This document shows positions 31,501-62,117 of a stretch of DNA of 64,000 nucleotides, piece after piece. Under the pieces are notes generated by a model that did not search any database, was not told where the DNA came from, and saw only the letters and a program-made list of their open reading frames with translations. A program made the translations under genes and the position numbers. Source of the DNA: Balanoglossus misakiensis (Eukaryota; Animalia; Hemichordata); assembly GCA_040954595.2 (NCBI GenBank), contig CM082584.2:2945344-3009343 (forward strand), given 5' to 3'. Position 1 is the stretch's first letter, and every line of letters begins with the position of its first letter.

Positions 31501-34500
31501 TTGCATCAACATTAACCAGAGCACACAGTAACCAGACCAGAGTGGACAGTATGCTGGCCATTAATTTTGAGTGTTTGGTGGGGTCAACCTTTGCGTCAAC
31601 ATTAACCAGGCCAGACAGTAACCAGGCCAAAGTGGACAGTATGCTGCCCATTAATTTTGAGTGTTTGGTGGGGTCAACCTTTGCGTCAACATTAACCAGG
31701 CCAGACAGTAACCAGCCCAGAGTGGACAGTATGCTGCCCATTAATTTTAAGTGATTGGTGGGGTCAACCTTTGCGTCAACATTAACCAGAGCACACAGTA
31801 ACCAGACCAGAGTGGACAGTATGCTGGCCATTAATTTTGAGTGTTTGGTGGGGTCAACCTTTGCGTCAACATTAACCAGGCCAGACAGTAACCAGGCCAG
31901 AGTGGACAGTATTCTGCCCTTTAATTTTGAGTGTTTGGTGGGGTCAACCTTTGTGTCAACATTAACCAGAGCACACAGTAACCAGGCCAGAGTGGACAGT
32001 ATGCTGCCCATTAATTTTGAGTGTTTGGTGGGGTCAAGCTTTGCGTCAACATTAACCAGGCCAGACAGTAACCAGGCCAAAGTGGACAGTATGCTGCCCA
32101 TTAATTTTGAGTGTTTGGTGGGGTCAACCTTTGCGTCAACATTAACCAGGCCAGACAGTAACCAGGCCAAAGTGGACAGTATGCTGCCCATTAATTTTGA
32201 GTGTTTGGTGGGGTCAACCTTTGCGTCAACATTAACCAGGCCAGACAGTAACCAGCCCAGAGTGGACAGTATGCTGCCCATTAATTTTAAGTGATTGGTG
32301 GGGTCAACCTTTGCGTCAACATTAACCAGAGCACACAGTAACCAGACCAGAGTGGACAGTATGCTGGCCATTAATTTTGAGTGTTTGGTGGGGTCAACCT
32401 TTGCGTCAACATTAACCAGGCCAGACAGTAACCAGGCCAGAGTGGACAGTATTCTGCCCTTTAATTTTGAGTGTTTGGTGGGGTCAACCTTTGTGTCAAC
32501 ATTAACCAGAGCACACAGTAACCAGGCCAGAGTGGACAGTATGCTGCCCATTAATTTTGAGTGTTTGGTGGGGTCAAGCTTTGCGTCAACATTAACCAGG
32601 CCAGACAGTAACCAGGCCAGAGTGGACAGTATTCTGCCCTTTAATTTTGAGTGTTTGGTGGGGTCAACCTGTGCGTCAACATTAACCAGAGCACACAGTA
32701 ACCAGGCCAGAGTGGACAGTATGCTGCCCATTAATTTTGAGTGTTTGGTGGGGTCAACCTTTGCGTCAACATTAACCAGGCCAGACAGTAACCAGGCCAG
32801 AGTGGACAGTATGCTGCCCATTAATTTTGAGTGTTTGGTGGGGTCAACCTTTGTGTCAACATTAACCAGAGCACACAGTAACCAGGCCAGAGTGGACAGT
32901 ATTCTGCCCTTTAATTTTGAGTGTTTGGTGGGGTCAAGCTTTGCGTCAACATTAACCAGGCCAGACAGTAACCAGGCCAGAGTGGACAGTATTCTGCCCT
33001 TTAATTTTGAGTGTTTGGTGGGGTCAACCTGTGCGTCAACATTAACCAGAGCACACAGTAACCAGGCCAGAGTGGACAGTATGCTGCCCATTAATTTTGA
33101 GTGTTTGGTGGGGTCAACCTTTGCGTCAACATTAACCAGGCCAGACAGTAACCAGGCCAGAGTGGACAGTATGCTGCCCATTAATTTTGAGTGTTTGGTG
33201 GGGTCAACCTGTGCGTCAACATTAACCAGAGCACACAGTAACCAGCCCAGAGTGGACAGTATGCTGCCCATTAATTTTAAGTGATTGGTGGGGTCAACCT
33301 TTGCGTCAACATTAACCAGGCCAGACAGTAACCAGGCCAAAGTGGACAGTATGCTGCCCATTAATTTTGAGTGTTTGGTGGGGTCAACCTGTGCGTCAAC
33401 ATTAACCAGAGCACACAGTAACCAGCCCAGAGTGGACAGTATGCTGCCCATTAATTTTGAGTGTTTGGTGGGGTCAACCTTTGCGTCAACATTAACCAGG
33501 CCAGACAGTAACCAGGCCAAAGTGGACAGTATGCTGCCCATTAATTTTGAGTGTTTGGTGGGGTCAACCTGTGCGTCAACATTAACCAGAGCACACAGTA
33601 ACCAGCCCAGAGTGGACAGTATGCTGCCCATTAATTCTAAGTGATTGGTGGGGTCAACCTTTGCGTCAACATTAACCAGAGCACACAGTAACCAGCCCAG
33701 AGTGGACAGTATGCTGCCCATTAATTGTAAGTGATTGGTGGGGTCAACCTTTGCGTCAACATTAACCAGGCCAGACAGTAACCAGGCCAAAGTGGACAGT
33801 ATGCTGCCCATTAATTCTAAGTGATTGGTGGGGTCAACCTTTGCGTCAACATTAACCAGAGCACACAGTAACCAGACCAGAGTGGACAGTATGCTGGCCA
33901 TTAATTTTGAGTGTTTGGTGGGGTCAACCTTTGCGTCAACATTAACCAGGCCAGACAGTAACCAGGCCAGAGTGGACAGTATTCTGCCCTTTAATTTTGA
34001 GTGTTTGGTGGGGTCAACCTGTGCGTCAACATTAACCAGAGCACACAGTAACCAGGCCAGAGTGGACAGTATGCTGCCCATTAATTTTGAGTGTTTGGTG
34101 GGGTCAACCTTTGCGTCAACATTAACCAGTCCAGACAGTAACCAGGCCAGAGTGGACAGTATGCTGCCCATTAATTTTGAGTGTTTGGTGGGGTCAACCT
34201 TTGCGTCAACATTAACCAGGCCAGACAGTAACCAGGCCAGAGTGGACAGTATGCTGCCCATTAATTTTGAGTGTTTGGTGGGGTCAACCTTTGCGTCAAC
34301 ATTAACTAGAGCACACAGTAACCAGGCCAGAGTGGACAGTATGCTGGCCATTAATTTTGAGTGTTTGGTGGGGTCAACCTTTGCGTCAACATTAACCAGA
34401 GCACACAGTAACCAGGCCAGAGTGGACAGTATGCTGCCCATTAATTTTGAGTGTTTGGTGGGGTCAACCTTTGCGTCAACATTAACCAGAGCACACAGTA

Positions 34501-34646
34501 ACCAGACCAGAGTGGACAGTATGCTGGCCATTAATTTTGAGTGTTTGGTGGGCTCAACCTTTGCGTCAACATTAACCAGAGCACACAGTAACCAGACCAG
34601 AGTGGACAGTATCCTGCCTATTAATTTTGAGTGACTTGTGGGTCAA
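28595..34646. repeat. 90-bp satellite array, ~67 copies, with higher-order variant patterns
   Basis: Unit TTTTGAGTGTTTGGTGGGGTCAACCTTTGCGTCAACATTAACCAGAGCACACAGTAACCAGGCCAGAGTGGACAGTATGCTGCCCATTAA with a strict 90-bp period. Confidence 0.98.
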
Positions 34647-36566: not shown

Positions 36567-37182
36567 GGCGTCGTTACAAGTTTAAGTTCATCCCTCCAGT
36601 ACAGTATTAGGTGGCGGCGTCGTTACAAGTATTAAGTTCATCCCTCCAGTACAGTATTAGGTGGCGGCGTCGTTACAAGTATTAAGTTCATCTCTCCAGT
36701 ACAGTATTAGGTGGCGGCGTCGTTACAAGTATTAAGTTCATCTCTCCAGTACAGTATTAGGTGGCGGCGTCGTTACAAGTATTAAGTTCATCCCTCCAGT
36801 ACAGTATTAGGTGGCGGCGTCGTTACAAGTATTAAGTTCATCCCTCCAGTACAGTATTAGGTGGCGGCGGCGTTACAAGTATTAAGTTCATCCCTCCAGT
36901 ACAGTATTAGGTGGCGGCGTCGTTACAAGTATTAAGTTCATCCCTCCAGTACAGTATTAGGTGGCGGCGTCGTTACAAGTATTAAGTTCATCTCTCCAGT
37001 ACAGTATTAGGTGGCGGCGTCGTTACAAGTATTAAGTTCATCTCTCCAGTACAGTATTAGGTGGCGGCGTCGTTACAAGTATTAAGTTCATCTCTCCAGT
37101 ACAGTATTAGGTGGCGGCGTCGTTACAAGTATTAAGTTCATCTCTCCAGTACAGTAATAGGTGGCGGCGTCGTTACAAATAT
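36567..37182. repeat. 50-bp minisatellite, ~12 copies
   Basis: CGTCGTTACAAGTATTAAGTTCATC(C/T)CTCCAGTACAGTATTAGGTGGCGG, near-identical units. Confidence 0.96.
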
Positions 37183-37508
37183 TACACTCCCTCTAGCAGC
37201 AGTGTTACCAATGAACCTAATATAAAAAAGAATGAAATTATTTTAAAAAACTGATTAGATCAAGTCATCATCATTGATAAAAAAACAATGATAAGAAGAA
37301 ATCATTTAAAAATTAAAGCTGCCAGCACCATTGGTGGGGCCCAAACAGTTCCCATTGTTACCAGGGTTAGTATGCCAAGGCTGTATTGTGCTGTGAATAC
37401 TAAGATATAGGAAAGCTGGTCAAAGGTTACCCTGGGGTCACTGAAAATCGCGTCAGGGACACTGTGGTCTCATTTAGTGATTACACTAAAAGAAGTCTAC
37501 ACAGGAGT

Positions 37509-41582: not shown

Positions 41583-41684
41583 CAGAAAAAGGTACTTCAC
41601 GGGGCCGCAAGGGTCTTTAACATAGGGTCCAAGGTCTTCTCCCCCTCCTGCACAGCCTAATGATGACCATTTAAGACAGTCCAC
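41583..41684 (-). ncRNA. Exon B1 (102 nt), purine-rich arm GUGCAGGAGGGGGAGAAGACCUUGGACC
   Basis: tttgattcacag|GTGGAC...TTTCTG|gtaacc; complementary to A1. Confidence 0.68.
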
Positions 41685-42197
41685 CTGTGAATCAAATATA
41701 TGTGCATGTTTATAAGTAACCAATCACAAACTTGCATTATGTCATACTAATAAGTCAAAATATGCAGAACATGGTATAATGTAGGGTCAAGGCTGTGTTG
41801 TGACAACGCATAACAATAGAATACTTAGCAGATAAATCTGTGAAACAGCAATTTTGAAACTCCATTTACAACTGACTAAGTAATAGTACTGCAGAGTATA
41901 GAAGCTCCATATGGGTATACTCTTACATGGCAATCAGGTGACAAATGATATTTATGTGTAAACAACAAAAACATGCACACAGACTTAATAACACTGTACC
42001 TAAAACATACCCACCCATGGACGGCAAACAAATAATTAAATTCAAGGCGCCTATATACAATTATAGCTATGGGTAATTCTGCCAATTCTAAATGTGTCCA
42101 AACTGAATTCATGTCCAGTTCATTCACCTCATCATAATCACATTACAGGAAATCAATAATGCCCTAAAAAAGCAAATAAAGATGAACTCATGCTTAC

Positions 42198-42282
42198 CAG
42201 AAAGTAGTCTTAACCAAGCTTCAGCGCACAGGAGAACGAGAAACCCTGGACCAGTTGAAATTGCGACAATCATGGCTTCCAT
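42198..42282 (-). ncRNA. Exon A1 (85 nt), pyrimidine-rich arm GGUCCAGGGUUUCUCGUUCUCCUGUGC
   Basis: tactaac...tttcattcacag|ATGGAA...TTTCTG|gtaagc. Confidence 0.7.
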
Positions 42283-42829
42283 CTGTGAATGAAATATGCA
42301 TAGCAGTTAGTAACAAATCATAAACCTGTAGGTCGCAATATATGGGATGTGATATAAGGGAGTGTTGAGAATATACTTCCCCAGGAATTGAGGTAGCTGT
42401 AGGATTTCCAGGGGGCCATCGATTTTTTTACATGAGAAATTGGGGGGGGGGGCACATAACACCAGACTTTTAGGGATGGCTATGAAAAAATAGCGTCAAG
42501 GACACTGTGGTCCCATTTGAGGATTACACAGAATTAGTTATAGACAAGAATAAAAATCACATGCGACACTGGCAAGCAGATATGACCTAACCATATATAA
42601 ATATGAAAATGTAAAACAATTAACAAGGACCATGCCCAATAGACTGTCATGTGTCATGGCAGTCTTACAAGTGATGCAAGAAAAATTTATGTTTGACCAA
42701 AAATTGTGTGTAGAAACACACATGACAAGCAACTTCTTACAGTCAGCCCTTGGACAGACTGACAGACATTCAATAGCTAGTGGTCTCTGTAATAGCTGGC
42801 CTATTAAGTTATGTAAACATGTAGTGTAA

Positions 42830-43606
42830 ACAGTCTCGGGGTACCAATACCTTGTAAACAGTAACTTTCAATGCAACTGGTCATGAGTTTAGAAGATTTG
42901 CTAACCGAAATCAATAATTTGCAAAAAAACTCGCTAAATATTTGTTCAAAAGTGGCAAAAACACATACAAGCAAATATCACCAAAATTGTTCAAAATCCT
43001 AACTTCAATCACCACAAGGAACATGCCTGCCAAAAAGGGAATCAATCAAAGCAATCTGACAAGCGGTTTCAGAGGGGAAAAATAACAAAAAAATTATCAT
43101 CAAAATTATAAATATGTAATTTTTTGCAATAATTTGAACAAAACCATGGTTGCTCAGACAACCTATAAGAAGCTTCATACTAAATTTCAAAGAAGTAGGC
43201 CGATCACTTTCAGAAATGAAGATTTTTTACCAATAATGTTGAAAAATTAATATAAACAAATGCATCAAAAATAGAAAATCAATATTAGCTCTAAACATAC
43301 AGGACTGTTTGAGGTAGACATAAGGTACCTGCATACCAATTTCCAAATTAATCTGATTAGTAGTTGGTGAGTTTGAGTTTTGACCCATTTCATATTTTTC
43401 CACCTAATTTGCATATTTTTTAAAGTCAATGACAACTCCATTTGAAGAAACTCCCTTTTACAGCCCAACATGCATCTACACACCAAATATCAAGGTGATA
43501 CACGCAGCGGTTTTCAAGTTTTTGATGTGGACGGATATACAGACATACATCCATCCATACATACAGACGCAACTGATTCCATTAGGTCCCAAATGGGACC
43601 TAAAAG
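42830..43606. mobile_element. Degenerate non-autonomous Helentron-associated (HINE/DINE-like) element; further copies near 40.4-41.0, 45.1-46.9, 49.4-51.0 and 53.1-54.6 kb
   Basis: Repeated AAATTTCAAAGCAATCTGAC...GTTTCAGAGA-type internal units, (CATA/CAGA)n tract, then terminal hairpin TAGGTCCCA-AA-TGGGACCTA (43583-43602) followed by an A run. Left boundary approximate. Confidence 0.6.
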
Positions 43607-46600
43607 TTCAAAGCAACCTGACAAGCGCTTTCAGAGAAAAAAGTTTTTGATAAAAATTGTACAAAAATTCCCCAATAACACAAACACGCAATTTTAAGCA
43701 TATTTTACATCTTACTTGGGTTACCCCCTAGGAATCTGCGTACCAAATTTCAAAGCATTTTGAGCAAAAATGGCAAAAATTGTTCAAAATTAAAAATGCC
43801 AATTTTACAACAATTTCGATTTGAACAAAACTATGGTAACTCGGACCATCTATAGGCAGCTTCATACTATATTTTGAAGGAGTCAGTCTATCGCTTTCAG
43901 AAATGAAGATGTTTTTACCAATAATGCAGAAAAAGACAAAACGATAAAAAATAGAAAATTCATAATATTAGCTCAAACCTACAGGACAGTATGGCGTTTA
44001 TTGACATATTTATATGAATATGGATAGCGTATGATGGGGGAGGGAGTATAAATTCTGAGGGTGTCATCAATTTTTTGTCATAACTTTTGGGGGGCATATA
44101 AAAAAATAACCTAAAATGTAGGAAATCCTACACCCCTCCCCCCCCCCAAGCTTTTATTCTTGCCAACAACTTTTTATAAAGGCCTCTGCAGTTTTGAAAG
44201 AAAGATTGCCTGCTATGTTAGACTATCAATCTACAGAGGGGATGAAAAATCCTATGTGAAGTGTCCAGTTTTTGATCAACTTCCGTAAGTTTCAACAGGT
44301 AAAAATATACCCGTAAATGTTTATCAACTTCACTACGTCTGAAACAGTATGCTTGCAAATGTATTAATATAGTCAGATAACATGAATAGTGAAGATAGCA
44401 AAACAAACAGGTTTATGCTTATGGCCATACCTACTATTAGCGATTGACATGTTGTACATAGCAAATTATTGTTTGGAGTTATGATCAACATGTTTTTATT
44501 GCATAAAGTCTCTTTATTGCATGTTTCATTTTACTCTGGAGAGAAATCTGTCCAAAGACGTTTACAGACTTGATGGGGATGATTTTGAATAGTGTTCTCA
44601 AAAACCTGCAATTTCATGCCCTATATTATGAAGTTGAGGAGGGGTTGTATTCCTAGTAGGATGTTGAAATCACTGGAGAGAAACCATGTCAGTATAAAAA
44701 ATTGCTAGGGGTGGTATCAAAGTTTGAAGATACCCAACATGATAAAATCAGTGTCCACACAAGTTTTAAGCAGCTTGCAGGACTGTAAATAGCAAGTAAT
44801 TCAAGTGTGTGTTTTTCAACCCAACATAACAAGTGGACTGATGAACTGACTAATGATCTCTGAAATGCCTAAATGTTTTTGGACATTGGCTAATCAAGGG
44901 GCTAAAAGTGTCTAATGGGAGACCTGTTCGAGACGATTTTGTGATATCAAGAAACCATGGAATACCTGCTCAAAAATTTTGAGTGACCTGCCACTGGGTA
45001 ATTCAAAATAGAATAGCTGGTGGTCTGTGTAAAAGCTGGCATATTAAATTTACGTAAACATGTGGTGAATACAGTCTAAGTTGGGTATACCATCACCTTG
45101 TTAACATACAGTAACTTTCAAAGAAACTGGGCAATTGGTTCAAGAGAAGATTTGCTATCCAAAAACAAAGAATTTATAACAAAACTACCTAAATATTAAA
45201 AACCAGACTTTAATAAAAGTCGCACATACAGGTACATGTGTTATGAAATTGTAAACTAACTTCCAAAGCAATCAGAAAAAATAGTATTACCCCTAGGAAT
45301 ATTCCTACCAAATTTCAATGCAATCAAAAGAACAGTTTCAAAGAAAAACACATTTGTTCAAAAGTGGCAAAAACACAAATATGCAAAAATCACTATAATT
45401 GTTCACCATCTTATTTTAATCACTACAAGGAACATTTCTGCCAAAGTTTGAGATTTGGGGACCTAACCCACCATAAATTGCAACAGAATTTTTTTCTTCA
45501 GAATATATTTTGGAGAGGTGTCTAGATTAATTGAACCCGAATCCACCTTGTAGAAATATTTCTAATTTGCATACATTTAATATTGAAAATTTTGGGGCCA
45601 AATATCAAGAAATAAACACGACCTTTTCTATGATTTTAAAGTATAAAAATATTTCATGTACATTAAGAACCATCTTGAAGTAATATTTATGGGCAGATTT
45701 CATAATTTGCATAAATTCAATATGCTGAACAGTATTCCTAGAGTCCCATATTTGGGCTGTATATTGGGTATTACACAAGCTATTTTAGTGTTTTTATTCA
45801 AAACTATCTGTATGACATTTGGAACAATTTTGAAAAAAAAAAAAAAGTTTACGTTTGCACTTTATATTTTGAATAAATTCAATATGGCCACCAAATGAAT
45901 GTTCTACAGCTTATCATACTCCAGCATATGTAATATAACCCCATACTAAATTTAGAAGGATTCAGACTATCGCTTTCAGAAGTGAAGATTTTTTTTGCCA
46001 ATAATGTGGAAAAAGAAAAAAAAATTAATAAACATTAGAAAATTCATAATATTAGCTCAAAACATACAGGACTGTATGGGTTCATTGACATACCAATTTT
46101 CAGATCAATCTGACCAGTGGTTGTCGAGTTTCTGACTTTTGACCAAATTTCACATTTTCACAGGTAATACTTTCGGCAATGACAACCTCATTTGAACAAA
46201 ATCCCATCTACAGCCCCGACTGCATCTACACACTAAATATGGAAGTGATACGCGCAGCGGTTTTCATCCATTCACTCCATACATACAAATGCAACTGATT
46301 CCTCGGGTCCCAATCATATACATGCACATAAACCAAATGGGACCTAAAAATTGCTCCAAAATTATAAATACCCAAATTTTGGCAATAATTTAAACAAAAC
46401 TAAGGTTGGTAACACAGATCACCTATGAAGCTTCATACTAATTATCAAACAAGTCAGCTGATCAATTCCAGAAAAGTAGATTTTTTACTGCTAATGTGGA
46501 AAGAAACAAAAAATGCATTTAAAAAAATCACATTATTAGCCCACAACATATAGAATTGTGTGAGGTTAACGTAAGGTACATGCACACCAATTTTCAATTT

Positions 46601-48001
46601 TGAAAGCAATTTGCCCAGTAGTTGTCGAGTTTCAGAGTTGACGAATTAGACACTTTCCCAGTTAATTTGCATATTTTGGCAATGACAACTTCATTTAGAC
46701 AAACTCCCATCTACCCCTGTGCCTGCATCTCCACACTAAATATCAAGGTTTCCAAGTGTTTGATGTTGACGGACATACAAACATCCATACATACATCAGG
46801 TGCAACTGATCCAATAAGGTCCCATGGTATAAATACAAATACCAAATGGGACATAACAATTCTGATAAAATGCCTACATAGCTAGTGTAAAAACACTTGT
46901 ACCTTCAACGCCCTTGGACAACACATTTTTGTAACTTCCCCAGATCAATGGCTAATATGACTTTCCAAAGGCGACTAAAATTTGGGGGGGGGGGGGGGGC
47001 TGATGCAAATTCTGATACATGTACTTCATGATTTAGAGAAATGGTGAAAATCCTGTCAACCAAATTACAGGGAAATCAGATTTTCCATGTAAAATCATAT
47101 CACCCAAAAATGTCAAAAGTGTCGAAAATAATTTTGAAACAAAAAGTCTACTCAAAATCATACCAAAATTTAAAGTTTAATGCAGTTGGGCAAGTAATTT
47201 GAGAATGAGGAAATTTACAAAATAATTTATAAATAATTTACAAATGCCGCACACAAACTTACAATTACTACCATGGTACCAGCAGAGACATTGCGATCGA
47301 GCAATCCCCAAGATATACATGACATGGTCTAATACAAATATTGAATATGTAAAATAAGTACACAACACTTCCAGTCTTTCAGTACAGTCAGCTGCTTGTG
47401 AACAATTTGCAGGTAGGTATTTCATCAAATTTACAGACCAAGTCATGCCTATACAATTCTCCCCTGAAATACGTTTTAAGCTACCCTAAGTGAGTGATGA
47501 AAATCTCATATTGTCGACAATTTCAAGATGGCCGATTTTTGCCATGTTAAAGAAATGGGAGTTCATAAGCTAAAGTGATAATGGGTCATTCTTGAACTTT
47601 TTAACAGAAAAAATAACAAAATGTGAAAAAAGTTTAATGAGTTTAATATGCTAACTACAGAGAACGACATGTTTGACCAAAGCATGAAATACAAAAAATG
47701 TATCATTTCTTCTATCTCTTACTACAGTGGGTTGTGGACTTTTCGCCCAGAATGCAATGTGATTTGACGCCTAGTGCAAAGTGAAAACCTATTTAAGGCA
47801 GCCAGAATGTTCTGCACAGTATGACGGGAAACATTTGTAAAGTCATGGCTAGCGTGGGCTGGTAAGTTTATGGGACTCTCCATGATAACCGATTGTGGCT
47901 TGCCACCACCATAATTTTGAAAGGGCGACTTCACTGTTTGATGGGAAAAGGTAGCATTTACAAACAAGCTATGGAGCATGTATACAGCAAGTTGTGCTTA
48001 C

Positions 48002-48074
48002 CGGAAAGCGGTCTTGGAAAAGGCCTAGGTATTCTCTTCCTCCTCCGGCATACGTTGAAATGCTGTGTTTAAGA
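48002..48074 (-). ncRNA. Exon B2 (73 nt)
   Basis: tactaat...tttgattcacag|TCTTAAAC...TTTCCG|gtaagc. Confidence 0.7.
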
Positions 48075-49258
48075 CTGTGAATCAAATATATGCAAATATT
48101 AATTAGTAACCAATCAACTTTGTTTTAGAATTATGTGGGCCATACTAATTAGTGAAAATATGCAAAACATGGTATAATGTACGGTCAGACTGTGCTGCGA
48201 TAATGTACAACAGTGGAATACGTCGATCTTAAAACTCCATTTACATCAGTACTGCAGTAAAGTGGTCCACATGGGTATATACCCCAAACATTGCAATTAG
48301 GTGACAACTGAAACTGACATGATATCAGATTCTGTAAATGACAGAAGGTGTACACGCACTTTGACATCTATGTAACACTGTACAATGATTTCTTTGTTTG
48401 TTGTGAAAATGAAACTTGCATTTGATCCATCTCACTTTTCATACAACTGATTAGCATAAGAATGTACATTGTTGGCAATTATAAAACATTTATTTAAGTA
48501 TAGAAAAGTAAGCCTTAAAATTTAAACTTTAAATATCAGTATACTAAAATGTTTCAAACGTGGCTGTTAGTATATCTCATATACGTGGTGGCGGAAGTAG
48601 ATGTTGTTACCAGGGAAGACATATTGAACACAGACAAGCCCAATAGTCGCTTGGTGATTTTTTATCTTTATAAAGATTCTCAAAACTTTTTGTGCATTTA
48701 GTAGCTTTGAGCAAGTTTCTGGTACTGATCAGATTTCCGAATTCAGGACTGCGCTTCTCTGGCTTTGGTCACCATCAGCCAATGTGATCCTACGCACACA
48801 TTTTTGAAGAAAAAAAATCCAGCCTGTTTGTGTCATGATTTATATTTTCTTTGCGGCCTAAGGTATTGTTTTATTTCACTCTAAACAACATTACTTTCCT
48901 TCATGTGTCTATACATAATAATAGATCTCTTAGCCAGTTTGATTAAGCATGGTGTTGGACTAGCACACTTTCAGCCAAAGTTACGGTATCTCCCTGTGTA
49001 TTGATATGGGAGTAATTTCTAGCTATATGGTTAAGGAAATGCATCCAAATTTAATTTATGCATCACATGAAGATTTGAACTTGACCATTTAATTCATGTC
49101 ATCACGATCATATCACAGGCAATCGAGGCCAGAATTCGAAGGGAAAAAAAAGTATTGATAACTGGAATGTGTAAATTAGTTCGTAGACATACAAATTGCT
49201 TCCTATTGCTTCGGTTGCAAAGCCCGATAAAAGCAAATATATAGCAAGTCATGCTTAC

Positions 49259-49333
49259 CATTGAGCGGTCTTAAACTCGCCCCAGACGAGGAAGAGAATC
49301 CTGAGTTGAAATGCAGGCAATCTCAGGCAGCAT
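49259..49333 (-). ncRNA. Exon A2 (75 nt)
   Basis: tactaac...tttgattctcag|ATGCTG...CAATG|gtaagc. Confidence 0.7.
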
Positions 49334-52300
49334 CTGAGAATCAAATAGACCTAGAAGTTAGTAACCAGTCATAGTAGCTCTAAGTTGGATGTAAAAGTCT
49401 AAGTTGGGTGTACCAACTCACCTTGTTAACAGTAACTTTCAAAGAAACTGGGCAATTGGTTCAAGAGAAGATTTGCTATCAAAAAACAAAGAATTTACAA
49501 CAAAACTACCTAAATATTAAAAACCAGACTTTAATAAAAGTCGCACATACAGGTACATGTGTTATGAAATTGTAAACCAACTTCTAAAGCAATCAGAAAA
49601 AAAATTTGGGTTACCCCTAGGAATTTTCCTACCATATTTCAAAGCCATCAAAAAAGCAGTTTCAAAGAAAAACACATTTGTTCAAAAGTGGCAAAAACAC
49701 AAATATGCAAAAATCACTATAATTGTACACCATCTTACTTCAATGACTACAAGGAACATTCCTGCCAAAGTTCAAAGCAACCAGACAACGGTTTGAACGT
49801 TTTCAGAGAAAACAGTTTTTGACAAAGATTGCATAAAATATCTCCAAATAAGACAAAGATGAAGTTTTAACCATTTTTAAGACATCTCACTTGGGTTACC
49901 CCTGGGAATCTGCCTACCAAATTGCAAAGCATTCTGACCAAAATTGGCATAATTGCTCAAAATTATAAATATGCCCATTTTACAACAATCTGAAAAAAAA
50001 TATGGTAACTCGGACCACCTATAGGAAGCTTCATACTAAATTTCGAAGGAGTCGGACTATCGCTTTCAGAAGTGAAGATTTTTTTACCAATAATTTGGAA
50101 AAAGACAAAAAATTAATAAACATTAGAAAATTCATAATATTAGCTCAAAGCATACAGGACTGTATGGGGTTTATTGACATACAAGTTTTCAGATCAATCT
50201 GACCAGTGGTTGCTGAGTTTCTGACTTTTGACCAATTTCACATTTTCACAGGTAATACTTTTGGCAATGGCAACCTCATTTGAACAAAATCCCATCTACA
50301 GCCCCGCCTTCATCTACACACTAAAAATGGAAGTGATATGCACAGCAGTTTTCATCCGTTCATCCATACATACAGATGCAAGTCATTCCATAGGGTCCCA
50401 ATCGTATATATATATATACACAAACCAAATGCCATGGGACCTAAAAATTGCTACACAATTAAAATACACAAATTTTGCAACACTTTAATCAAAACTATGG
50501 TAACTCAGATCACCTGCGAAGCTTCATACTAAATTTCAAACAAGTCAGCTGATCAATTCCAGAAAAGTAGATTTTTTACCGATAATGTGGAAACAAAAAA
50601 TGTAAAACATTGGAAATTCACATAAGCTGACAACATAAAGGGCTGTGTGAGGTTACTATAAGGTACATGCATATCAATTTTCAATTTTTAAAGCAATTTA
50701 CCCAGTAGTTTTTGAGTTCCTCAGTTTTGACAAATTTGACACTTTCCCAGCTCACTTGCATATTTTGGCAATGACAACTTCATTTAGACAAACTCCCACC
50801 TACTGCCTTGCCTGCATCTCCACACTAAATATCAAGGTCACACGCCAGTAGTTTCCAAATGTTTGATGTTGATGGACATACAGACAAACAGCCATACAGA
50901 CATCCATACATACAGGTGCAACTGATCCTGTAAGGTCCCATGGTATAAATACATATACCAAACGGGACCTAATAATTTTAATAAAATGCCTTCATAGCTA
51001 GTGTAAAAACCACTTGTACCTTCAACGTGCTTGGACAACACATTTTTGTAACTTTCCCAGATCAATGGCTAATTTTTTTTTGGGGGGGAGGGGGCGATGC
51101 AATTCTGATACATGTACTTCATGATTTAGAGATCTGGTGAAAATCCTGTCAACCGAATTACAGGGAAATCAGATTTTCCATGGAAAATCATTTTACCAAA
51201 AAATTTCAAAAAGTGTAGAAAATAAATTTGAAACAGAAAGCCTACTCAAAATCATACCAAAATTTAAATTTTAATGCAGTTGGGCAAGCAATTTGAGAAT
51301 GAAGAAACTTAGAAATAATTTATAAATTGAAAATAATTTACAAATGCTTCACACAAACTTACAATCACTACCATATTACTGTACAAGTTAAAAGGACATT
51401 GTACCAGCAGAGACATTGCGATCGAGCAATCCCCAAGATATACATGACATGGTCTAATTACAAATATTGAATATGTAAAATAAGTACACAACACTTCCAG
51501 TCTTTCAGTACAGTCAGCTGCTTGTGAACAATTTGCAGGTAGGTATTTCATCAAATTTACAGACCAAGTCATGCCTATACAATTCTCCCCTGAAATAAGT
51601 TTTAAGCTACCCTAAGTGAGTGATGAAAATCTCATACGGTCGACAATTTCAAGATGGCCGATTTTTGCCATGTTAAAGAAATGGGAGTTCATATGCTAAA
51701 GTGATGATGGGTAATTCTGGGACTTTTTAACAGAAAAAATAACAAAATGTGAAAAACAGTTTAATGGGTTTAATATGCTAACTACAGAGACAGACATGTT
51801 TGACCAAAGGAAGTCATGAAATACAGTAAACATATCATTTCTTCTATCTCTTACTACAGTTGGTTATGGACTTTCCGCCTTGAATGCAATGAGATTTGAC
51901 CCCCTAGCGCAAAGTGAAAACCTATTTAAAGCAGCCAGAATTTTCTGCATAGTATGACGGAAACATTTGTAAAGTCATGGGTAGCATGGGTTGGCAGGTT
52001 TATGGGACCCTGCTCATGTTCCCTCGAATAAAACATGATACATGTTTGGTGACTTATTATTCTGTATTTGTTGATTTTGTCATATTTTCAGATAAATCCC
52101 TATCAATCAGTCATATTTGTTGGCCTTGCTATACAGCGAAATATAAATCTTGTTGACTGAAATTGTTGAGGATAGTGTTACATAAAGGTTACCCATTGGA
52201 AAATATTAAAATGATTATTAGTGGTGTCCAACTCTTCATGATAACCAGTTGTGGCTTGCCACCACCATAATTTTGAAAGGGCGACTTCACTGTTTGATGG

Positions 52301-52357
52301 GAAAAGGTAGCCTTTACAAACAAGTTATGGAGCATGTATACAGCAAGTTGTGCTTAC

Positions 52358-52430
52358 CGGAAAGCGGTCTTGGATCAGGCCTAGGTATTCTCTCCCTCCT
52401 CCGGCATACGTTGAAATGCTGTGTTTAAGA
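52358..52430 (-). ncRNA. Exon B3 (73 nt)
   Basis: Paralog of B2 with intact splice sites. Confidence 0.68.
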
Positions 52431-52996
52431 CTGTGAATCAAATATATGCATATTAATAAGTAACCAATCAACCTTGCTTTGGAATTATGTGGGCAATACT
52501 AAATAGTGAAAATATGCAAAACATGGTATAATATAGGGTCAGAAAAAATATCCAGCCTGTTTGTGTCATGATTTACATTTTTCTTTCTGACCTAAATTAT
52601 TGTTTTTGTCACTTTAAACAACATTACTGTCCTTCATAAGTCTAATATGATAATAGACTTCTTAGCCAGTTTGATTAAGCATGGTGTTGGACTAGCGCAT
52701 GTTCAGCCAAAGCTACAGTATCTCCCTGTGTATTGGTATGGGAGTAATTTTAGCTATATGTTTAAAGAAATGCATCCAAATTTATTCTATGCTCCATGTG
52801 AAGATTTGAAATTGTGAGTTGTCCATTTAATTCATGTCATCACTACCATATCACAGGCAATCAAGGCCAGAATTCGAAGGGGAAAAAACAAGTATTGAAA
52901 TCTGGAATGTGTAAATTAGTTCGTAGACATACATTGCTTCCTATTGTACCGTTTGCAACGCGTGATAAAAGCAAATATATAGCACGTCATGCTTAC

Positions 52997-53071
52997 CATT
53001 GAGCGGTCTTAAACTCGCCTCGGACGAGGAAGAGAATCCCGAGTTGAAACGCAGACATTTTCAGGCAGCAT
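52997..53071 (-). ncRNA. Exon A3 (75 nt)
   Basis: Paralog of A2 with TACTAAC (plus-strand 53095-53101) and intact splice sites. Confidence 0.68.
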
Positions 53072-55962
53072 CTGTGAATCAAATAGACATAGAAGTTAGT
53101 AACCAGTCATAGTAGCTCTATTAAAAACCAGACTTTAATAAAAGTCGCACATACAGGTACATGTGTTATGAAATTGTAAACCAACTTCTAAAGCAATCAG
53201 AAAAAAAATTTGGGTTACCCCTAGGAATTTTCCTACCATATTTCAAAGCCATCAAAAAAGCAGTTTCAAAGAAAAACACATTTGTTCAAAAGTGGCAAAA
53301 ACACAAATATGCAAAAATCACTATAATTGTACACCATCTTACTTCAATGACTACAAGGAACATTCCTGCCAAAGTTCAAAGCAACCAGACAACGGTTTGA
53401 ACGTTTTCAGAGAAAACAGTTTTTGACAAAGATTGCATAAAATATCTCCAAATAAGACAAAGATGAAGTTTTAACCATTTTTAAGACATCTCACTTGGGT
53501 TACCCCTGGGAATCTGCCTACCAAATTGCAAAGCATTCTGACCAAAATTGGCATAATTGCTCAAAATTATAAATATGCCCATTTTACAACAATCTGAAAA
53601 AAAATATGGTAACTCGGACCACCTATAGGAAGCTTCATACTAAATTTCGAAGGAGTCGGACTATCGCTTTCAGAAGTGAAGATTTTTTTACCAATAATTT
53701 GGAAAAAGACAAAAAATTAATAAACATTAGAAAATTCATAATATTAGCTCAAAGCATACAGGACTGTATGGGGTTTATTGACATACAAGTTTTCAGATCA
53801 ATCTGACCAGTGGTTGCTGAGTTTCTGACTTTTGACCAATTTCACATTTTCACAGGTAATACTTTTGGCAATGGCAACCTCATTTGAACAAAATCCCATC
53901 TACAGCCCCGCCTTCATCTACACACTAAAAATGGAAGTGATATGCACAGCAGTTTTCATCCGTTCATCCATACATACAGATGCAAGTCATTCCATAGGGT
54001 CCCAATCGTATATATATATATACACAAACCAAATGCCATGGGACCTAAAAATTGCTACACAATTAAAATACACAAATTTTGCAACACTTTAATCAAAACT
54101 ATGGTAACTCAGATCACCTGCGAAGCTTCATACTAAATTTCAAACAAGTCAGCTGATCAATTCCAGAAAAGTAGATTTTTTACCGATAATGTGGAGACAA
54201 AAAATGTAAAACATTGGAAATTCACATAAGCTGACAACATAAAGGGCTGTGTGAGGTTACTATAAGGTACATGCATATCAATTTTCAATTTTTAAAGCAA
54301 TTTACCCAGTAGTTTTTGAGTTCCTCAGTTTTGACAAATTTGACACTTTCCCAGCTCACTTGCATATTTTGGCAATGACAACTTCATTTAGACAAACTCC
54401 CACCTACTGCCTTGCCTGCATCTCCACACTAAATATCAAGGTCACACGCCAGTAGTTTCCAAATGTTTGATGTTGATGGACATACAGACAAACAGCCATA
54501 CAGACATCCATACATACAGGTGCAACTGATCCTGTAAGGTCCCATGGTATAAATACATATACCAAACGGGACCTAATAATTTTAATAAAATGCCTTCATA
54601 GCTAGTGTAAAAACCACTTGTACCTTCAACGTGCTTGGACAACACATTTTTGTAACTTTCCCAGATCAATGGCTAATTTTTTTTTGGGGGGGGAGGGGGC
54701 GATGCAATTCTGATACATGTACTTCATGATTTAGAGATCTGGTGAAAATCCTGTCAACCGAATTACAGGGAAATCAGATTTTCCATGGAAAATCATTTTA
54801 CCAAAAAATTTCAAAAAGTGTAGAAAATAAATTTGAAACAGAAAGCCTACTCAAAATCATACCAAAATTTAAATTTTAATGCAGTTGGGCAAGCAATTTG
54901 AGAATGAAGAAACTTAGAAATAATTTATAAATTGAAAATAATTTACAAATGCTTCACACAAACTTACAATCACTACCATATTACTGTACAAGTTAAAAGG
55001 ACATTGTACCAGCAGAGACATTGCGATCGAGCAATCCCCAAGATATACATGACATGGTCTAATTACAAATATTGAATATGTAAAATAAGTACACAACACT
55101 TCCAGTCTTTCAGTACAGTCAGCTGCTTGTGAACAATTTGCAGGTAGGTATTTCATCAAATTTACAGACCAAGTCATGCCTATACAATTCTCCCCTGAAA
55201 TAAGTTTTAAGCTACCCTAAGTGAGTGATGAAAATCTCATACGGTCGACAATTTCAAGATGGCCGATTTTTGCCATGTTAAAGAAATGGGAGTTCATATG
55301 CTAAAGTGATGATGGGTAATTCTGGAACTTTTTAACAGAAAAAATAACAAAATGTGAAAAACAGTTTAATGGGTTTAATATGCTAACTACAGAGACAGAC
55401 ATGTTTGACCAAAGGAAGTCATGAAATACAGTAAACATATCATTTCTTCTATCTCTTACTACAGTTGGTTATGGACTTTCCGCCTTGAATGCAATGAGAT
55501 TTGACCCCCTAGCGCAAAGTGAAAACCTATTTAAAGCAGCCAGAATTTTCTGCATAGTATGACGGAAACATTTGTAAAGTCATGGGTAGCATGGGTTGGC
55601 AGGTTTATGGGACCCTGCTCATGTTCCCTCGAATAAAACATGATACATGTTTGGTGACTTATTATTCTGTATTTGTTGATTTTGTCATATTTTCAGATAA
55701 ATCCCTATCAATCAGTCATATTTGTTGGCCTTGCTATACAGCGAAATATAAATCTTGTTGACTGAAATTGTTGAGGATAGTGTTACATAAAGGTTACCCA
55801 TTGGAAAATATTAAAATGATTATTAGTGGTGTCCAACTCTTCATGATAACCAGTTGTGGCTTGCCACCACCATAATTTTGAAAGGGCGACTTCACTGTTT
55901 GATGGGAAAAGGTAGCCTTTACAAACAAGTTATGGAGCATGTATACAGCAAGTTGTGCTTAC

Positions 55963-56035
55963 CGGAAAGCGGTCTTGGATCAGGCCTAGGTATTCTCTCC
56001 CTCCTCCGGCATACGTTGAAATGCTGTGTTTAAGA
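55963..56035 (-). ncRNA. Exon B4 (73 nt), same sequence as B3
   Basis: 3605-bp offset duplicate. Confidence 0.66.
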
Positions 56036-56601
56036 CTGTGAATCAAATATATGCATATTAATAAGTAACCAATCAACCTTGCTTTGGAATTATGTGGGCA
56101 ATACTAAATAGTGAAAATATGCAAAACATGGTAAAATATAGGGTCAGAAAAAATATCCAGCCTGTTTGTGTCATGATTTACATTTTTCTTTCTGACCTAA
56201 ATTATTGTTTTTGTCACTTTAAACAACATTACTGTCCTTCATAAGTCTAATATGATAATAGACTTCTTAGCCAGTTTGATTAAGCATGGTGTTGGACTAG
56301 CGCATGTTCAGCCAAAGCTACAGTATCTCCCTGTGTATTGGTATGGGAGTAATTTTAGCTATATGTTTAAAGAAATGCATCCAAATTTATTCTATGCTCC
56401 ATGTGAAGATTTGAAATTGTGAGTTGTCCATTTAATTCATGTCATCACTACCATATCACAGGCAATCAAGGCCAGAATTCGAAGGGGAAAAAACAAGTAT
56501 TGAAAGCTGGAATGTGTAAATTAGTTCGTAGACATACATTGCTTCCTATTGTACCGTTTGCAACGCGTGATAAAAGCAAATATATAGCACGTCATGCTTA
56601 C

Positions 56602-56676
56602 CATTGAGCGGTCTTAAACTCGCCTCGGACGAGGAAGAGAATCCCGAGTTGAAACGCAGACATTTTCAGGCAGCAT
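56602..56676 (-). ncRNA. Exon A4 (75 nt), same sequence as A3
   Basis: 3605-bp offset duplicate. Confidence 0.66.
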
Positions 56677-56879
56677 CTGTGAATCAAATAGACATAGAAG
56701 TTAGTAACCAGTCATAGTAGCTCTGCGTAGCAGGGCTGCGTGTTAACAGCTATGCCATAGCTGACACTGGTAGCTTATAACAGTCTCGATGGTGCCAAAA
56801 ATCTCCCCAACAACAAAACTAATTCTGGTCAGTTTATTCGCTATCGCTTTGCCTTAAAAGTTATACTGTAGTGTGTTTC

Positions 56880-57300
56880 CACAGGGGGCTCTCCCTCCGC
56901 GATTTTATTGTTTGTTTGTTTGTTTGTTGTTGTTGTTGTTGTTGTTGATTGGCATTATAAACAAATACATATTTCTTTATTAATAAATATGGTTTGTTGA
57001 CATGTAAGTGTTAGGGAATATTCAACGGTTAGCATTAGTGTTGGCACTTTTTTCGATCTACGGCCCCGGGCATCACTAAGCCACGAAGAGAGGGTGATGC
57101 TGGCCGTGGATCGCAAAAATGCCAACACTAATACTAACAGTTGAATATACCATAACCTGTCAAATATACCCTAATAACCTAACCCTTACATGTCAACCAA
57201 CCATATTTATTGACAAAGAAATATGTATTTGTTTATAATGCCAATCAACAACAACAACAAACAAACACACAATAAAATTGCGGAGGGAGAGCCCCCTGTG
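56880..57300. mobile_element. 421-bp foldback MITE, CACAG termini, imperfect 7-bp TSD (P-superfamily-like)
   Basis: CACAGGGGGCTCTCCCTCCGC...GCGGAGGGAGAGCCCCCTGTG with most of the element palindromic; flanks GTGTTTC (56873-56879) and GTGTTAC (57301-57307). Confidence 0.88.
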
Positions 57301-57545
57301 GTGTTACGGTACCACCTGCCCCACAATGACAAAGCTGACTCGAGGCCACGAACGACGTACAATTTACTCGCACGGTGTAAAACAACGCATGAATTCCATG
57401 CGACTGTGAGTTTACTGTTCGGCGCTGTAACGCTTCCCAAAGTCAGAATTTCGATGTTGGGATGACACTGTCGCCCTACCACTACCAGTTTTTGCAAGAA
57501 GGAGTGTACATGTACTTGTAAAATAACATTAAATGCCATGCTTAC

Positions 57546-57660
57546 CAGAGAAACGACATCATCAAGCATGGAGGCGACCGGGACCTCCATGCTTGATGAA
57601 CGTCGAAGCTGCAATGATTTTTCAAATGCAACGGTCAGCGGGACGAGAACGAGGCAGCAC
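57546..57660 (-). ncRNA. Exon H (115 nt) with self-contained ~21-bp hairpin
   Basis: aactaat...cag|GTGCTGCC...TTTCTCTG|gtaagcatg. Perfect 15-bp inverted repeat CATCAAGCATGGAGG (57560-57574) / CCTCCATGCTTGATG (57584-57598), extended by flanking pairs. Confidence 0.62.
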
Positions 57661-60254
57661 CTGCTCGTCAATTATGCAAATTAGTTACTACTCAATCAGA
57701 ATCTTGCTTTCGCATTCTAATTAGTCAAAGTATGCAGTGCAACGTTTGTGTGCGGGTGGAGAATGCGCCTCGCCAACTGATGAATTCTCTGTCACGGCGT
57801 TCTTTGGAAGTGCGATTATGTAACCGATTATCTCATTAGGGACATAGATAATATATTTTGTCTTCTTCAATTTGTTTGTACTACGAAAACAATTGCGAAA
57901 CGAATAGCAAGCGCTTACGCTATGAAACGTAAATAAATATCAGTTATGGCCATGTAGAAACGGAACGTCAATCCGCATTTGTCAAAAAATAATAGAAAAG
58001 ACAAAGAAGCTGAGGGGAATGACCTCCGTTCTGACCTATCTGGGGAAGGCCTATTGCAATACGCAATATGTCAGATCATGCTACCATCCGCCATTCTGAT
58101 TGGACGAGAGCTCAATCCATCGATACGAAAGTACTCAATAGAGCACTGCTGAAACTGGCCCTGAACTAATCGCATGCAACAGGGAAAACGCGACCTTTCA
58201 AATCAAATAAATACAAAAAATACAGCCAATGAATTTACGGCCGGCCGGTTTATTTCTTAACTGCTCTATAGGAATTGTTGTCACTGCCATGGACCACTTC
58301 GCGGATAGCATAACACAGGGTGTTGTGGGACAGTTTGCGTTCTGAGCGCGTGCATTAGCCATGCAGTAGACGCTATGTTGAACGCAAATTATACCATCAT
58401 GCATTGCAGATACCCTATCCGCGTAGTGGTCTATGCACGATGCATGTCTTGTCAGTGCGCACTCGACAAATTGGACCGTTTCTATAAAAAATATGAACTG
58501 TGACTTTTGATTTTATTGAGAAATATCTCTCGAATTAAACCATGTAACGTAAATCAAGGAAATGTATTCTGCTAAAGTTGCTCCTGACGGGTTCGCTGAA
58601 ACATTGTGTTATTGGTAAAATACGTCAAGTGTAAAATATTGAGTTACCTAATATGATAAAATATCAGATTTATGTGTTTAATCAAGATAGGCCTCTCTTC
58701 ATATGTTTCATTTATTTGGTTTGAATAAAGGTTATCTGATTCAGTTTCATGAAGTATACACGGCTTAAATGTTTATCCACTGTAGTGCCACTGAAATGGC
58801 TTTCACGTTTGAGACTTCGGGCGGTAATCTTATATTTACTTTCTTCATTTCTATTGGAGTAGACTACACCGGGGTCGACCTAAAATATCTATAAGCAATG
58901 CGCAATGGGAGTATTTCAGCCGTGATGACCGGACGATGTCGGACAAAGTCTACAACTTAATACACGATCCCCTCCAATTTGCATATGTCCATAAATGGCT
59001 AAACTTGCGTATCCTAGTGTTCTAAAGAACAAATGGTGGCGCTCTTATTGTCGCGTGTGCCACCTCCTGAATATCTGTGATTGGCTGTATCTCAATTTGC
59101 CATGGTAACAGTAGCTAAATTTGCATAGGTTACCGTATACCTTTAAGGCACGTCAAGCGTATGTCCTTGTTGGGCTGTCTGACAGGAACGAATCGAGACC
59201 CACCGCACAGTCACGCAATGATGAAATCCACATCGCCAAAAACGATGTTTCACTAGACTCGGGTACATGCAACTATCTCATGCCATTTACAGAATTGAAC
59301 ACCCCAGGCAATGTTACGTGTTGCTCCATGACTGTTGCTCCATGACCAACCAAACAGCAAACAACAAACTCATGTCCAAACCAATGCAACTCATTGCATT
59401 AAACAATATAGATGGGGATCCCAAAGAATAATTCAAATATATTTGCAGAATTGCCACGCAAGTCGGGCATATTGTCCAAATTTAAGCACTCTGCAACTGA
59501 AACATAAAACCCAAGCTTTTTACAATACAGGAATTAAAAATTCTGATTGAATTAATGCCAACATAAAACGAAAAAAGACAACTCACAAAATGTATATGTA
59601 GTGTTTCATGTAGCGTTTTGATCTCAAGAAGATATGAAAAAATCGTCGGGGGAAAAGCAGGTGAGAACATCACCTCATTTTTGGGATATGAAATAAAAGT
59701 CTATTTTACGGAGACACGTGGTAAAAAGTCCACCCTAGTCTCAATTTTCCAGACCCCTCTGGGATAGTCGAGTAGTCCATCCCCATGAAACTGCATATTT
59801 TAAAATAGCCAAAATGAGTCAATGGGGCATTTTTTCATCCTACCTCAACCTTGCTAAGAGTTTCCGTGCCAGTCACCTGCAAAAATTAAATTTACCACGG
59901 ACAAATTGAAATACAGCCAATCGAAAAAAGTGCGCCACCACATGGTCATTTGAAGACTTTGATGCTCTCTTCTGGCCGTAACCGCATGTGATCCGGAATA
60001 AAATTGAGCCTTGATCGCGTTTTTTATTTTATTTTCACCACCAACGAAAATCTACGACGGCCCAACCGCAGATTATTGCTGCTCCATACAACAACCGGCT
60101 TATACTGTACATAAGTTTTGTGTTCTGGTGGCATTTGCGGGTCTGAGACGTCATTTCTAGAAGGCCCTATTCGTTTTATACCAATAACTTTTACCACCCA
60201 TGCTGGATTTTTTACGTTTTCTTTGACGACGCTTGACCCTTTTCTTGCTTTGTT

Positions 60255-60702: not shown

Positions 60703-61695
60703 TAACTTTTGTTTGTTTGTTTGCTTGTTTATTTGTCTGTCTGTTTGTGTATTCTATATTATGTTATATGAAGCTTCTGCTACATTTTGCATTTCCTTTT
60801 GCATAAACAATGACTAAACCGACTGGAGCGCGTTTGGGCGCAGGATAGATTTGAGAGTTAATCCATCTGTGTTTACCGGCTAAAACCGTTCGATTTTTGC
60901 AACAAGTGAGACCGTAGTAGTAATCCGAAGGCCAGTCAGTGCATGTTTGCATGACTGGCGTGTAGTGATACCTACCACAAAATGGTATCGCCCAAATAAT
61001 GTTTGCCGGAATTTATAAGCCTGGCGCTCTCCTAACAAGTCGTCATGTTCGCCCTCGTAGTCATGCTGCCAGTCGGGGAAAATGACGTACTTCATGTAAA
61101 AGTTTATAAAAAATAAACCAAATTTCACTGCCATGTATCCCAAAACAATTTATGTGACAGATTTTTAAAAAGAACACTAACTTCGGCTAAGGAATGTCAA
61201 GTCATAGCTCCGCGTTCAGGTCTGTGTGTTCCCCACGCACCACAGCCCTGCATAAGGCCCCATAGACAAAACTGGTGCGCTTGCGGTCCGGACCCGGACG
61301 CCCGACCGCAGCTTTTTCTGTCGAAATTCGATTTTATCGAAGCAAAATCCTTTCCCTTATTACTTCAACCGACCCCAAATATGATGCGTTTAACTTCTTC
61401 TAACGTCCGTGTAACGCCGGGAACACACAGACCTGCACGCAGAGCTAGTCAAATCAGTGCACTGTGCAGTCGGTCGGTACACTCTGCTGGTGTATACAAA
61501 CGATCGTGGCGACAGAATCTCTCCCTGGGACGGCCTTACACAAATTTAATCGATTGTCTAACAATTTTACTGCGACTTGTTGCCACGTCTTATACATTTC
61601 GTTGACCGGTGGAATATAGAGGTTCAGTCGTCACGCTGAACTGGCTCGAAACCATTCCCCACGCTGATTCGACTCTCGCGCCCGGGATATATGTC

Positions 61696-62117
61696 TGTGG
61701 TAGCTCCATGGTAACAACCGTAAGGGGCCAGGTCATGTGATTGTGGGTTGCCTATCATTTGCTATAAGGCGCCTTCTGATTGGTTTATATTCCCACTAAA
61801 TCTCGTAGAGTTCAGCGGGATCTCCATTGAGAGTTGGTCAGATGTAGTGTGAGGCGACAGCATAAAAAACAAGTCGCCGTTCCCTACATCTGATTTTAAT
61901 CAGATTGTGGTGGCTCCATGGTAACAACCCAAGGGGCTAGGTCATGTGATTGTGGGATGCCTATCGTTTGCTATAAGGCGCCTTCTGATTGGTTTATTCG
62001 CCCAGTAAATCCCGTCGATTTCAACGGGAGCTCCAGTGAGAGTTGGTCAGATGTAGTGTGAGGCGACAGCATAAAAAAACCACGTCGCCGTTACCTACAT
62101 CTGATTTTAATCAGATT
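61696..62117. repeat. 211-bp tandem duplication, each copy ending in a hairpin
   Basis: TGTGGT.GCTCCATGGTAACAACC... at 61696 and 61907. Confidence 0.92.

Follow-up and report, generated by a model that had tools for sequence, protein, structure and literature searches.

A tandem array of mutually complementary putative exons in Balanoglossus misakiensis: a candidate spliced hairpin RNA gene

Results

A 64,000-nucleotide (nt) stretch of the genome of the hemichordate Balanoglossus misakiensis (GenBank assembly GCA_040954595.2, contig CM082584.2, positions 2,945,344 to 3,009,343 of the forward strand), here called the window, carries on its minus strand nine paralogous exon-like cassettes in series: one H, four A and four B. 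The A cassettes hold arms complementary to arms of the B cassettes over 21-27 base pairs (bp), and the motifs that border the cassettes suggest that they are exons. Judged from the DNA, the array probably encodes a real RNA structure of unusual design that has been selected. Our tentative preference is for a spliced non-coding RNA gene, a polycistronic, intron-split precursor resembling a primary microRNA (pri-miRNA), from which Dicer-1 would cut each hairpin to one ~22-nt duplex. This reading is favoured because each stem is one small-RNA duplex long and because H, built from the same module, contains a hairpin of precursor-microRNA (pre-miRNA) size.

Organization of the array

Motif and profile comparison within the window recovers all nine cassettes at the positions given in a preliminary description of this DNA. 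A scan for the donor motif yields ten minus-strand matches and one plus-strand match, and nine of the ten minus-strand matches terminate the cassettes. An nhmmer profile built from seven cassettes retrieves exactly the nine known ones; no further cassette was found in the window, the next match having an E value of 0.18. Read along the minus strand, the array begins with H (57546-57660), recognized by its nhmmer paralogy to A and B, its donor motif and its flank identities; the upstream flank of H is B-like, the downstream flank A-like, and the 5' boundary uncertain. The putative exons of the pairs follow: A4 (56602-56676; pyrimidine arm 56625-56648), which also holds the 3' strand of a junction stem described below, and B4 (55963-56035; purine arm 55985-56009); A3 (52997-53071) and B3 (52358-52430), identical to A4 and B4; A2 (49259-49333; arm 49282-49305) and B2 (48002-48074; arm 48024-48048); and A1 (42198-42282; arm about 42226-42252) and B1 (41583-41684; arm about 41626-41653). 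The putative A-B introns measure 566, 566, 1184 and 513 nt in pairs 4, 3, 2 and 1, and successive pairs are spaced 2.9-5.7 kb apart.

Units 3 and 4 are a recent tandem duplication of 3605 nt with four mismatches and identical exons, unit 2 and unit 4 share 88-94% identity, and unit 1 is, by its sequence, much older than the others. Four A/B pairs had been described; four are present, but because units 3 and 4 are one duplication with identical exons, only three are distinct, in about two deep lineages. A, B and H share an upstream block of ~40 nt and a downstream block of ~30 nt. Between A and B, identity is 0.60-0.80 upstream and 0.60-0.73 downstream, where the random 99th percentile is 0.63; beyond the shared blocks it is mostly at background level. 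On sequence comparison A, B and H are paralogues. The homology of A4, A3 and A2 starts at a common AG, 46-48 nt 5' of the A acceptor (56722-56724, 53117-53119 and 49379-49381), where three unlike upstream sequences join, each with a terminal pyrimidine and AG.

The flanks carry splice-like signals. Upstream of every cassette lies a conserved flank of ~45 nt, which in A4 (56677-56721, minus strand) comprises a branch-like CTAAC, a 42-nt AG-free zone and CACAG; downstream of every cassette lies a conserved flank of ~30 nt, which in A4 (56572-56601, minus strand) comprises a GTAAGC donor and GCATG and YGCY motifs. A branch-like motif and an AG-free zone of 40-44 nt are found at most proximal acceptors of A and B, the exceptions being A2, with an AG-free zone of 15 nt, and B1, with no branch motif match. 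In B and H a second acceptor-like block is located 56-70 nt further upstream (56101-56146 in B4, minus strand, its last 22 nt common with H). This block is identical at 40 of 46 positions between B1 and B4 and at 18-19 of 22 between H and B, and provides the B cassettes with alternative distal acceptors at 56103, 52498, 48144 and 41746 (B4 to B1). In the B cassettes (for example 55940-56085, minus strand), the upstream and downstream flanks can pair over the exon, a fold that covers the branch region and the donor and whose energy of -12 to -15 kcal/mol ranks in roughly the top 2-7% of background. A reading of these paired flanks as terminal repeats of a miniature inverted-repeat transposable element (MITE) was rejected: it fits B only and leaves flank conservation unexplained.

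A CpG-rich stretch at and upstream of H (57001-59000), with CpG observed/expected ratios (o/e) of 1.11 and 1.01, is a candidate promoter region; the ratio over 38-54 kb is 0.38, and among the cassettes H alone lies in CpG-rich DNA. Conceivably, the upstream blocks are themselves promoter elements in the DNA, making the cassettes separate short transcripts or alternative first exons, with A and B RNAs that pair in trans. The blocks hold TGATTGG, TTTGCAT and TGA(C/T)T motifs, the first two of which we take to be CCAAT-box-like and octamer-like; two blocks stand in tandem in B and H; and the polypyrimidine tracts are modest. We regard this explanation as improbable, given that the motifs adjoin the cassettes with branch-point spacing and AG-free zones, that CpG-rich DNA occurs at H only, and that no U small nuclear RNA (snRNA), signal recognition particle (SRP) RNA, tRNA or spliced leader (SL) RNA was matched. 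A second CpG-rich stretch (61000-62100, o/e 1.03) is a possible promoter; it includes a duplicated block of ~210 nt with CCAAT-like motifs and a 162-codon plus-strand frame with no Pfam match.

Arm pairing and folding

The pairing counts in the preliminary description are reproduced for pair 1 (26 of 27 positions paired, with five G:U pairs, one GxG mismatch and one bulge) and for pair 2 (20 of 21); pairs 3 and 4 have 19 of 21. In pairs 2-4 a C.A mismatch sits immediately beyond the 21-bp span counted there. Comparison with dinucleotide-shuffled controls had been named beforehand as a check. With fixed segments of 32-33 nt around the arms, shuffled internally 5000 times per pair, 0, 2 and 0 shuffles were equally stable for pairs 4, 2 and 1 (z-scores of -4.1, -3.9 and -6.3). 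Among other segments of the window, 0 of 3108 pair equally well with the A1 exon and 1 of 3123 with A2 or A4. Whole spliced A+B folds give z-scores of -2.6 to -3.4. The sense-strand duplex is more stable than the antisense duplex in all three arm pairs, and the B1 arm favours A1 (-47.6 kcal/mol) over the other A arms (-27 to -28 kcal/mol).

The single-exon counterpart is a 52-nt hairpin inside H (57554-57605, minus strand), with about 21-22 bp, one bulge, one G:U pair and a loop of 7-9 nt; its minimum free energy is -45.3 kcal/mol (z -6.0), and none of 200 shuffles is as stable. Each A+B stem has room for only one ~22-nt duplex.

A second stem crosses the A|B junction, where the 3' end of A pairs with the 5' end of B over 9 bp in pairs 2-4 and at least 7 bp in pair 1. 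Between pairs 2 and 4 the junction region shows no change in 39 positions, as compared to 6 in 48 at the outer exon ends (p 0.03, post hoc). Splicing would reduce the separation of the arms from 572-1233 nt to a loop of 49-59 nt. The predicted probability of the junction stem rises upon splicing in pairs 1 and 2, from 0.15-0.18 to 0.76-0.97, and in pair 4, where it is already 0.82 before splicing, to 1.0. The proposal that the hairpin matures by splicing is thus partly supported: the junction stem is predicted to gain from splicing, most strongly in pairs 1 and 2, and the main stem is predicted to form before it.

Selection on the duplex

All conservation results rest on comparison of paralogues inside the window. 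Pair 1 had been described as strongly different from pairs 2-4 while still pairing. Pairing is indeed kept, but the arms are homologous rather than unrelated, with 15 of 24 and 17 of 24 positions identical between pairs 1 and 2. When aligned without gaps in one register of 24 columns, in which a bulged A is conserved, pairs 1 and 2 differ by nine changes on the A side and seven on the B side, five columns having changed on both (hypergeometric p 0.04), and these 16 substitutions leave only 3 of 48 cells unpaired. In neutral simulations that scatter equal numbers of changes over an ancestor with perfect pairing, 8.2-10.9 cells are broken; across the 12 settings used, P ranges from 2e-5 to 7e-3. 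Between pairs 2 and 3, most changes keep pairing, as had been claimed, although one of the four arm changes (pairs 3/4) breaks a pair, from G-C to A.C. Compatibility with G:U pairing on the splice strand is also upheld, with a modest excess of G:U over A.C (9:2, p 0.033). This excess is not expected from conversion at the DNA level, as conversion would yield Watson-Crick pairs.

Loop inversion is the proposed origin of the module. Each A or B arm alone forms a weak hairpin (-4.7 to -6.8 kcal/mol), whose loop is the pyrimidine tract (A) or the purine tract (B) in five of six cases, as an inversion origin predicts. A and B look like one stem-loop exon that was duplicated and had its loop inverted. 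The steps would be: an ancestral stem-loop exon, of which H retains both arms in one exon; exon duplication, followed by inversion of the loop between short inverted repeats, making A and B complementary in one step; and three tandem duplications of the A-B unit. Duplication with loop inversion would also explain why the arms occupy the same place in homologous exons.

This origin furnishes a neutral rival as well, in which duplication and inversion, together with sporadic conversion from one inverted arm to the other, left complementarity that serves no function. No selection is needed for the inversion itself, Watson-Crick identity between A1 and reverse-complemented B1 is only 21 of 27, and the G:U excess is small. 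Such a relic is unlikely in view of the neutral simulations (P <= 0.007), the G:U pairs where conversion would leave Watson-Crick ones, and the constraint on the flanks; it is the covariation and flank tests that argue against it.

Sequence conservation is highest in the flanks. Comparison of units 4 and 1 over the 45 nt preceding and the 30 nt following each exon gives identity at 131 of 150 positions (87%), as against 259 of 376 (69%; shuffled control 64%) in the intron interior, a difference with p 8e-6, or p 1e-3 when the 30 core splice bases are omitted. As the exons match at 101 of 143 positions, the splice-like flanks appear constrained in sequence and the exons in structure only. The duplex is likely under selection of some kind at the RNA level. 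The original claim of a non-coding locus under such selection is supported by the covariation, the G:U bias, the shuffles, the flank data and the lack of a frame (below).

Conserved intronic flanks are typical of regulated exons, and pairing in the pre-mRNA might simply couple inclusion of A and B, as a regulated cassette of a 5' untranslated region or as poison exons of a host whose coding exons lie beyond the window. Consistent with such coupling, the stem is predicted in unspliced RNA and the B flanks pair mutually over the exon. We nevertheless consider it quite unlikely, since the H hairpin lies within a single exon, the tandem copying of entire A-B units is hard to explain in this way, and none of the 80 non-transposon frames submitted to Pfam, from 157 listed on the minus strand, has a match.

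Conservation of structure without arm sequence would also suit a spliced, structured long non-coding RNA (lncRNA), or A+B circles of 148/187 nt made by back-splicing, that bind double-stranded RNA (dsRNA) proteins as decoy or scaffold, or in editing or localisation, and give no small RNAs. The flanks hold GCATG and YGCY motifs, of RBFOX and MBNL type. A-B pairing would bring the A acceptor near the B donor, and the stem is kept in circular folds (-44.3, -44.8 and -60.5 kcal/mol). These folds are, however, 4.6-5.8 kcal/mol less stable than the linear ones, and pairing of the upstream A flank with the downstream B flank is ordinary (-8.4 to -11.4 kcal/mol; background -7.1, standard deviation 3.1). 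The stems of 21-27 bp come near the 16-26-bp, likewise imperfect internal duplexes of circular RNAs (circRNAs) which, in PMC6537376, are proposed to bind PKR without activating it. Those circles arise from ordinary mammalian mRNA exons, whereas here the exon pairs are dedicated and covarying and the circles, although the pairs could be back-spliced, hypothetical. With no binding partner known in this animal, we rate an lncRNA or circle that makes no small RNAs as somewhat unlikely.

Coding potential and homologue searches

In agreement with the preliminary description, which had named a conserved coding frame as grounds for rejecting its proposal, no open frame is shared across the paralogues and their junctions. 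The 746-nt constitutive chain contains 7-11 stops per frame, and its longest open reading frame (ORF) from an ATG is 65 aa. The array could in principle encode a small secreted peptide that evolves fast, with hydrophobic A and Gly-rich B exons, pairing being a by-product of codon content. One open frame does run over the junction of A4+B4, and an open frame common to B1 and B4 ends in both at a stop 30 nt beyond the donor and contains several synonymous-looking differences (by eye). However, A1 differs from A4 by two 5-nt indels, A1+B1 stops early, and most of the ten exon changes that separate pairs 2 and 4 would be non-synonymous in that frame (by hand). No protein homologue of the B4 frame was found, and Pfam returned nothing significant for six cassette-region frames. 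A peptide is thus highly improbable. A stop-free frame of 154 codons passes through H into the intron (57207-57671, minus strand); it has no Pfam or Atlas match and is likely due to chance.

Searches for known RNA families gave only chance-level Rfam matches at E up to 10, none on the arms, and no covariance-model or ARAGORN match to tRNA, snRNA, small nucleolar RNA, SRP or SL RNA. Likenesses to U6, the 7SL/Alu B-box, the tRNA T-loop, the selenocysteine insertion sequence (SECIS), the C/D box, SL RNA and the heptamer of recombination signal sequences (RSS) were dropped, having no Rfam or ARAGORN support. A pattern of the exon core had no match in metagenome or viral contigs. The flank pattern, which detects seven of the nine cassettes in the window and none in 100 shuffles, had no match in viral contigs; its four metagenome matches were rejected, as all four are without profile or blastn support and both of the two checked lie inside long ORFs. 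Literature searches, which reached main texts but neither miRBase/MirGeneDB lists nor supplementary microRNA (miRNA) tables for Saccoglossus or Ptychodera, yielded no paper describing the locus or an animal intron-split miRNA array.

Genomic surroundings

The window is AT-rich (GC fraction 0.30-0.48 per 2 kb) and contains transposons, satellites and dispersed repeats. Two broken Helitron-like elements (2902-10425 and 15934-18418, plus strand) encode Rep, PIF1 helicase and endonuclease, the first interrupted by a reverse transcriptase of a long interspersed nuclear element (LINE) at about 6471-8813. The best match of the PIF1 frame at 8890-10422 comes from Ptychodera flava, at 89% across 55% of the query; this species accounts for three of the four top matches, and others nearby are at about 52% or less. 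This one transposon protein points to a probable acorn-worm host. OB-fold-like frames at 22703 and 24075 have no Pfam match and may belong to a Helitron-like element. A second LINE (10480-14419, minus strand) has, by eye, ORF1 and endonuclease-like and reverse-transcriptase-like frames. Satellites occupy 28595-34633 (67 x 90 bp, with long open frames of up to 1176 codons on both strands), 36567-37184 (12 x 50 bp) and 479-2408 (a 30-bp array). The intron between H and A4 contains a near-perfect, MITE-like palindrome of ~420 nt (56879-57301). Upstream of H, at about 59840-59877 on the minus strand, a strong-looking acceptor and, within about 35 nt after it, donor-like sites may mark a small upstream exon (by eye).

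Discussion

If the array is a pri-miRNA-like gene, transcription would begin in the CpG-rich region near H and splicing would join the exons in the order H-A-B-A-B. Removal of each A-B intron would shorten the loop and close the 7-9-bp junction stem, forming a substrate like that of miR444/miRtop14, and the spliced A+B would fold into a stem-loop of about 100 nt from which Dicer-1 would cut one ~22-nt duplex. A broader proposal, possible but doubtful, is a generator of small RNAs or dsRNA in which a single exon module is reused, its splice flanks fixed and its arm free to vary. The hairpin would lie in one exon (H) or be split by loop inversion (A+B), and alternative splicing would pick hairpins and fast-evolving guides.

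Several observations weigh against the pri-miRNA-like reading. With its loops of 49-59 nt and weak basal stems, A+B departs from canonical bilaterian pre-miRNAs. Regarding splicing, the proximal acceptors have modest pyrimidine fractions of 0.62-0.69 (0.50 in H), and in the B cassettes a distal acceptor competes. Modest pyrimidine content and the second acceptor-like block in B and H make the exon starts uncertain; the main stem is retained with the longer B exon in all three folds. That stem is, moreover, predicted at probabilities of 0.84-1.0 with or without the intron. The covariation test compares three sequences in a register chosen to keep pairing, with ambiguous indels at the stem ends; in an alternative arm alignment, the last four columns result from indels on both arms. 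A1 pairs also with B2/B4, at about -35 kcal/mol. No target of the arms was found within the window (best 16-17 of 21), Rfam at gathering score gave no match, miRNA families included, and no paper containing the arm motifs was found. Finally, the exons are conserved no better than the intron (p 0.75), whereas conservation is usually highest in mature miRNAs according to PMC4007103.

By analogy, the layout is most like that of the plant MIR444/miRtop14 genes and the array form most like that of Drosophila hairpin RNA (hpRNA) clusters. The comparison with miR444 made earlier is borne out for layout: arms of at least 20 nt, here 21-27 bp, lie in separate putative exons with an intron in the loop and splice-like motifs alongside. 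PMC11706861 describes MIR444 and miRtop14 as having an intron between the 5p and 3p arms and one ~21-nt duplex per hairpin, as predicted here, and names these two, both from plants, as the only intron-split miRNA genes known to it. In miRtop14, it reports, splicing shortens the loop and is necessary, a non-spliceable gene making almost no mature miRNA. Splicing may therefore matter for cutting even if pairing needs none. Unlike those genes, the present locus is animal and arranged in tandem, its arms lie on paralogous putative exons and change quickly in sequence, and its small RNAs are predicted.

The analogy with Drosophila hpRNAs stands for array form, and is weak for pathway. An intron in the loop of the fly hp-CG18854, which could not be confirmed, would if right be an animal precedent for an intron-split hairpin. 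The fly clusters hp-CG4068, Dps-hp551 and a multiexonic transcript with four hpRNAs, as described in PMC12697358, resemble the present array, as interpreted here, in having tandem, diverging hairpins on one non-coding, partly multiexonic transcript. Fly hpRNAs are extended hairpins there, yielding several, sometimes phased, small interfering RNAs (siRNAs) via Dicer-2, Loqs-PD and AGO2, whereas the stems here, at 21-27 bp, fit one ~22-nt duplex each. The fly route is the least fitting, because the sampled deuterostomes (sea star, fish and chicken; no hemichordate) in preprint 10.1101/2023.05.08.538551 showed neither Dicer-2 nor an siRNA Argonaute.

Canonical bilaterian miRNA clusters share with this locus a hairpin of pre-miRNA size, that of H, and a polycistronic layout from tandem duplication. 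They differ in that the hairpins here lie in putative exons beside splice-like sites, with the long loops and weak basal stems of A+B. Canonical loops measure about 8-40 nt, so that H (7-9 nt) is borderline and A+B (49-59 nt) falls outside. In this comparison of paralogues, the arms (15 of 24 and 17 of 24) are not better conserved than their surroundings (flanks 87%), and Rfam gives no match to a known family. The locus can be placed in neither the MIR444/miRtop14 nor the hpRNA family, as its stems are not extended, its arms not conserved and its small RNAs only predicted.

Intron-split precursors escape programs that search genomic DNA for compact stem-loops. A deuterostome case, if true, would suggest that a class of animal precursors has stayed hidden and that splicing controls guide production. 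It would also show how simply a new hairpin can arise, by duplication of an exon and inversion of its loop. Should no small RNAs be made, an lncRNA whose exon pairs conserve structure only, set between splice flanks that conserve sequence, would still be of unusual design.

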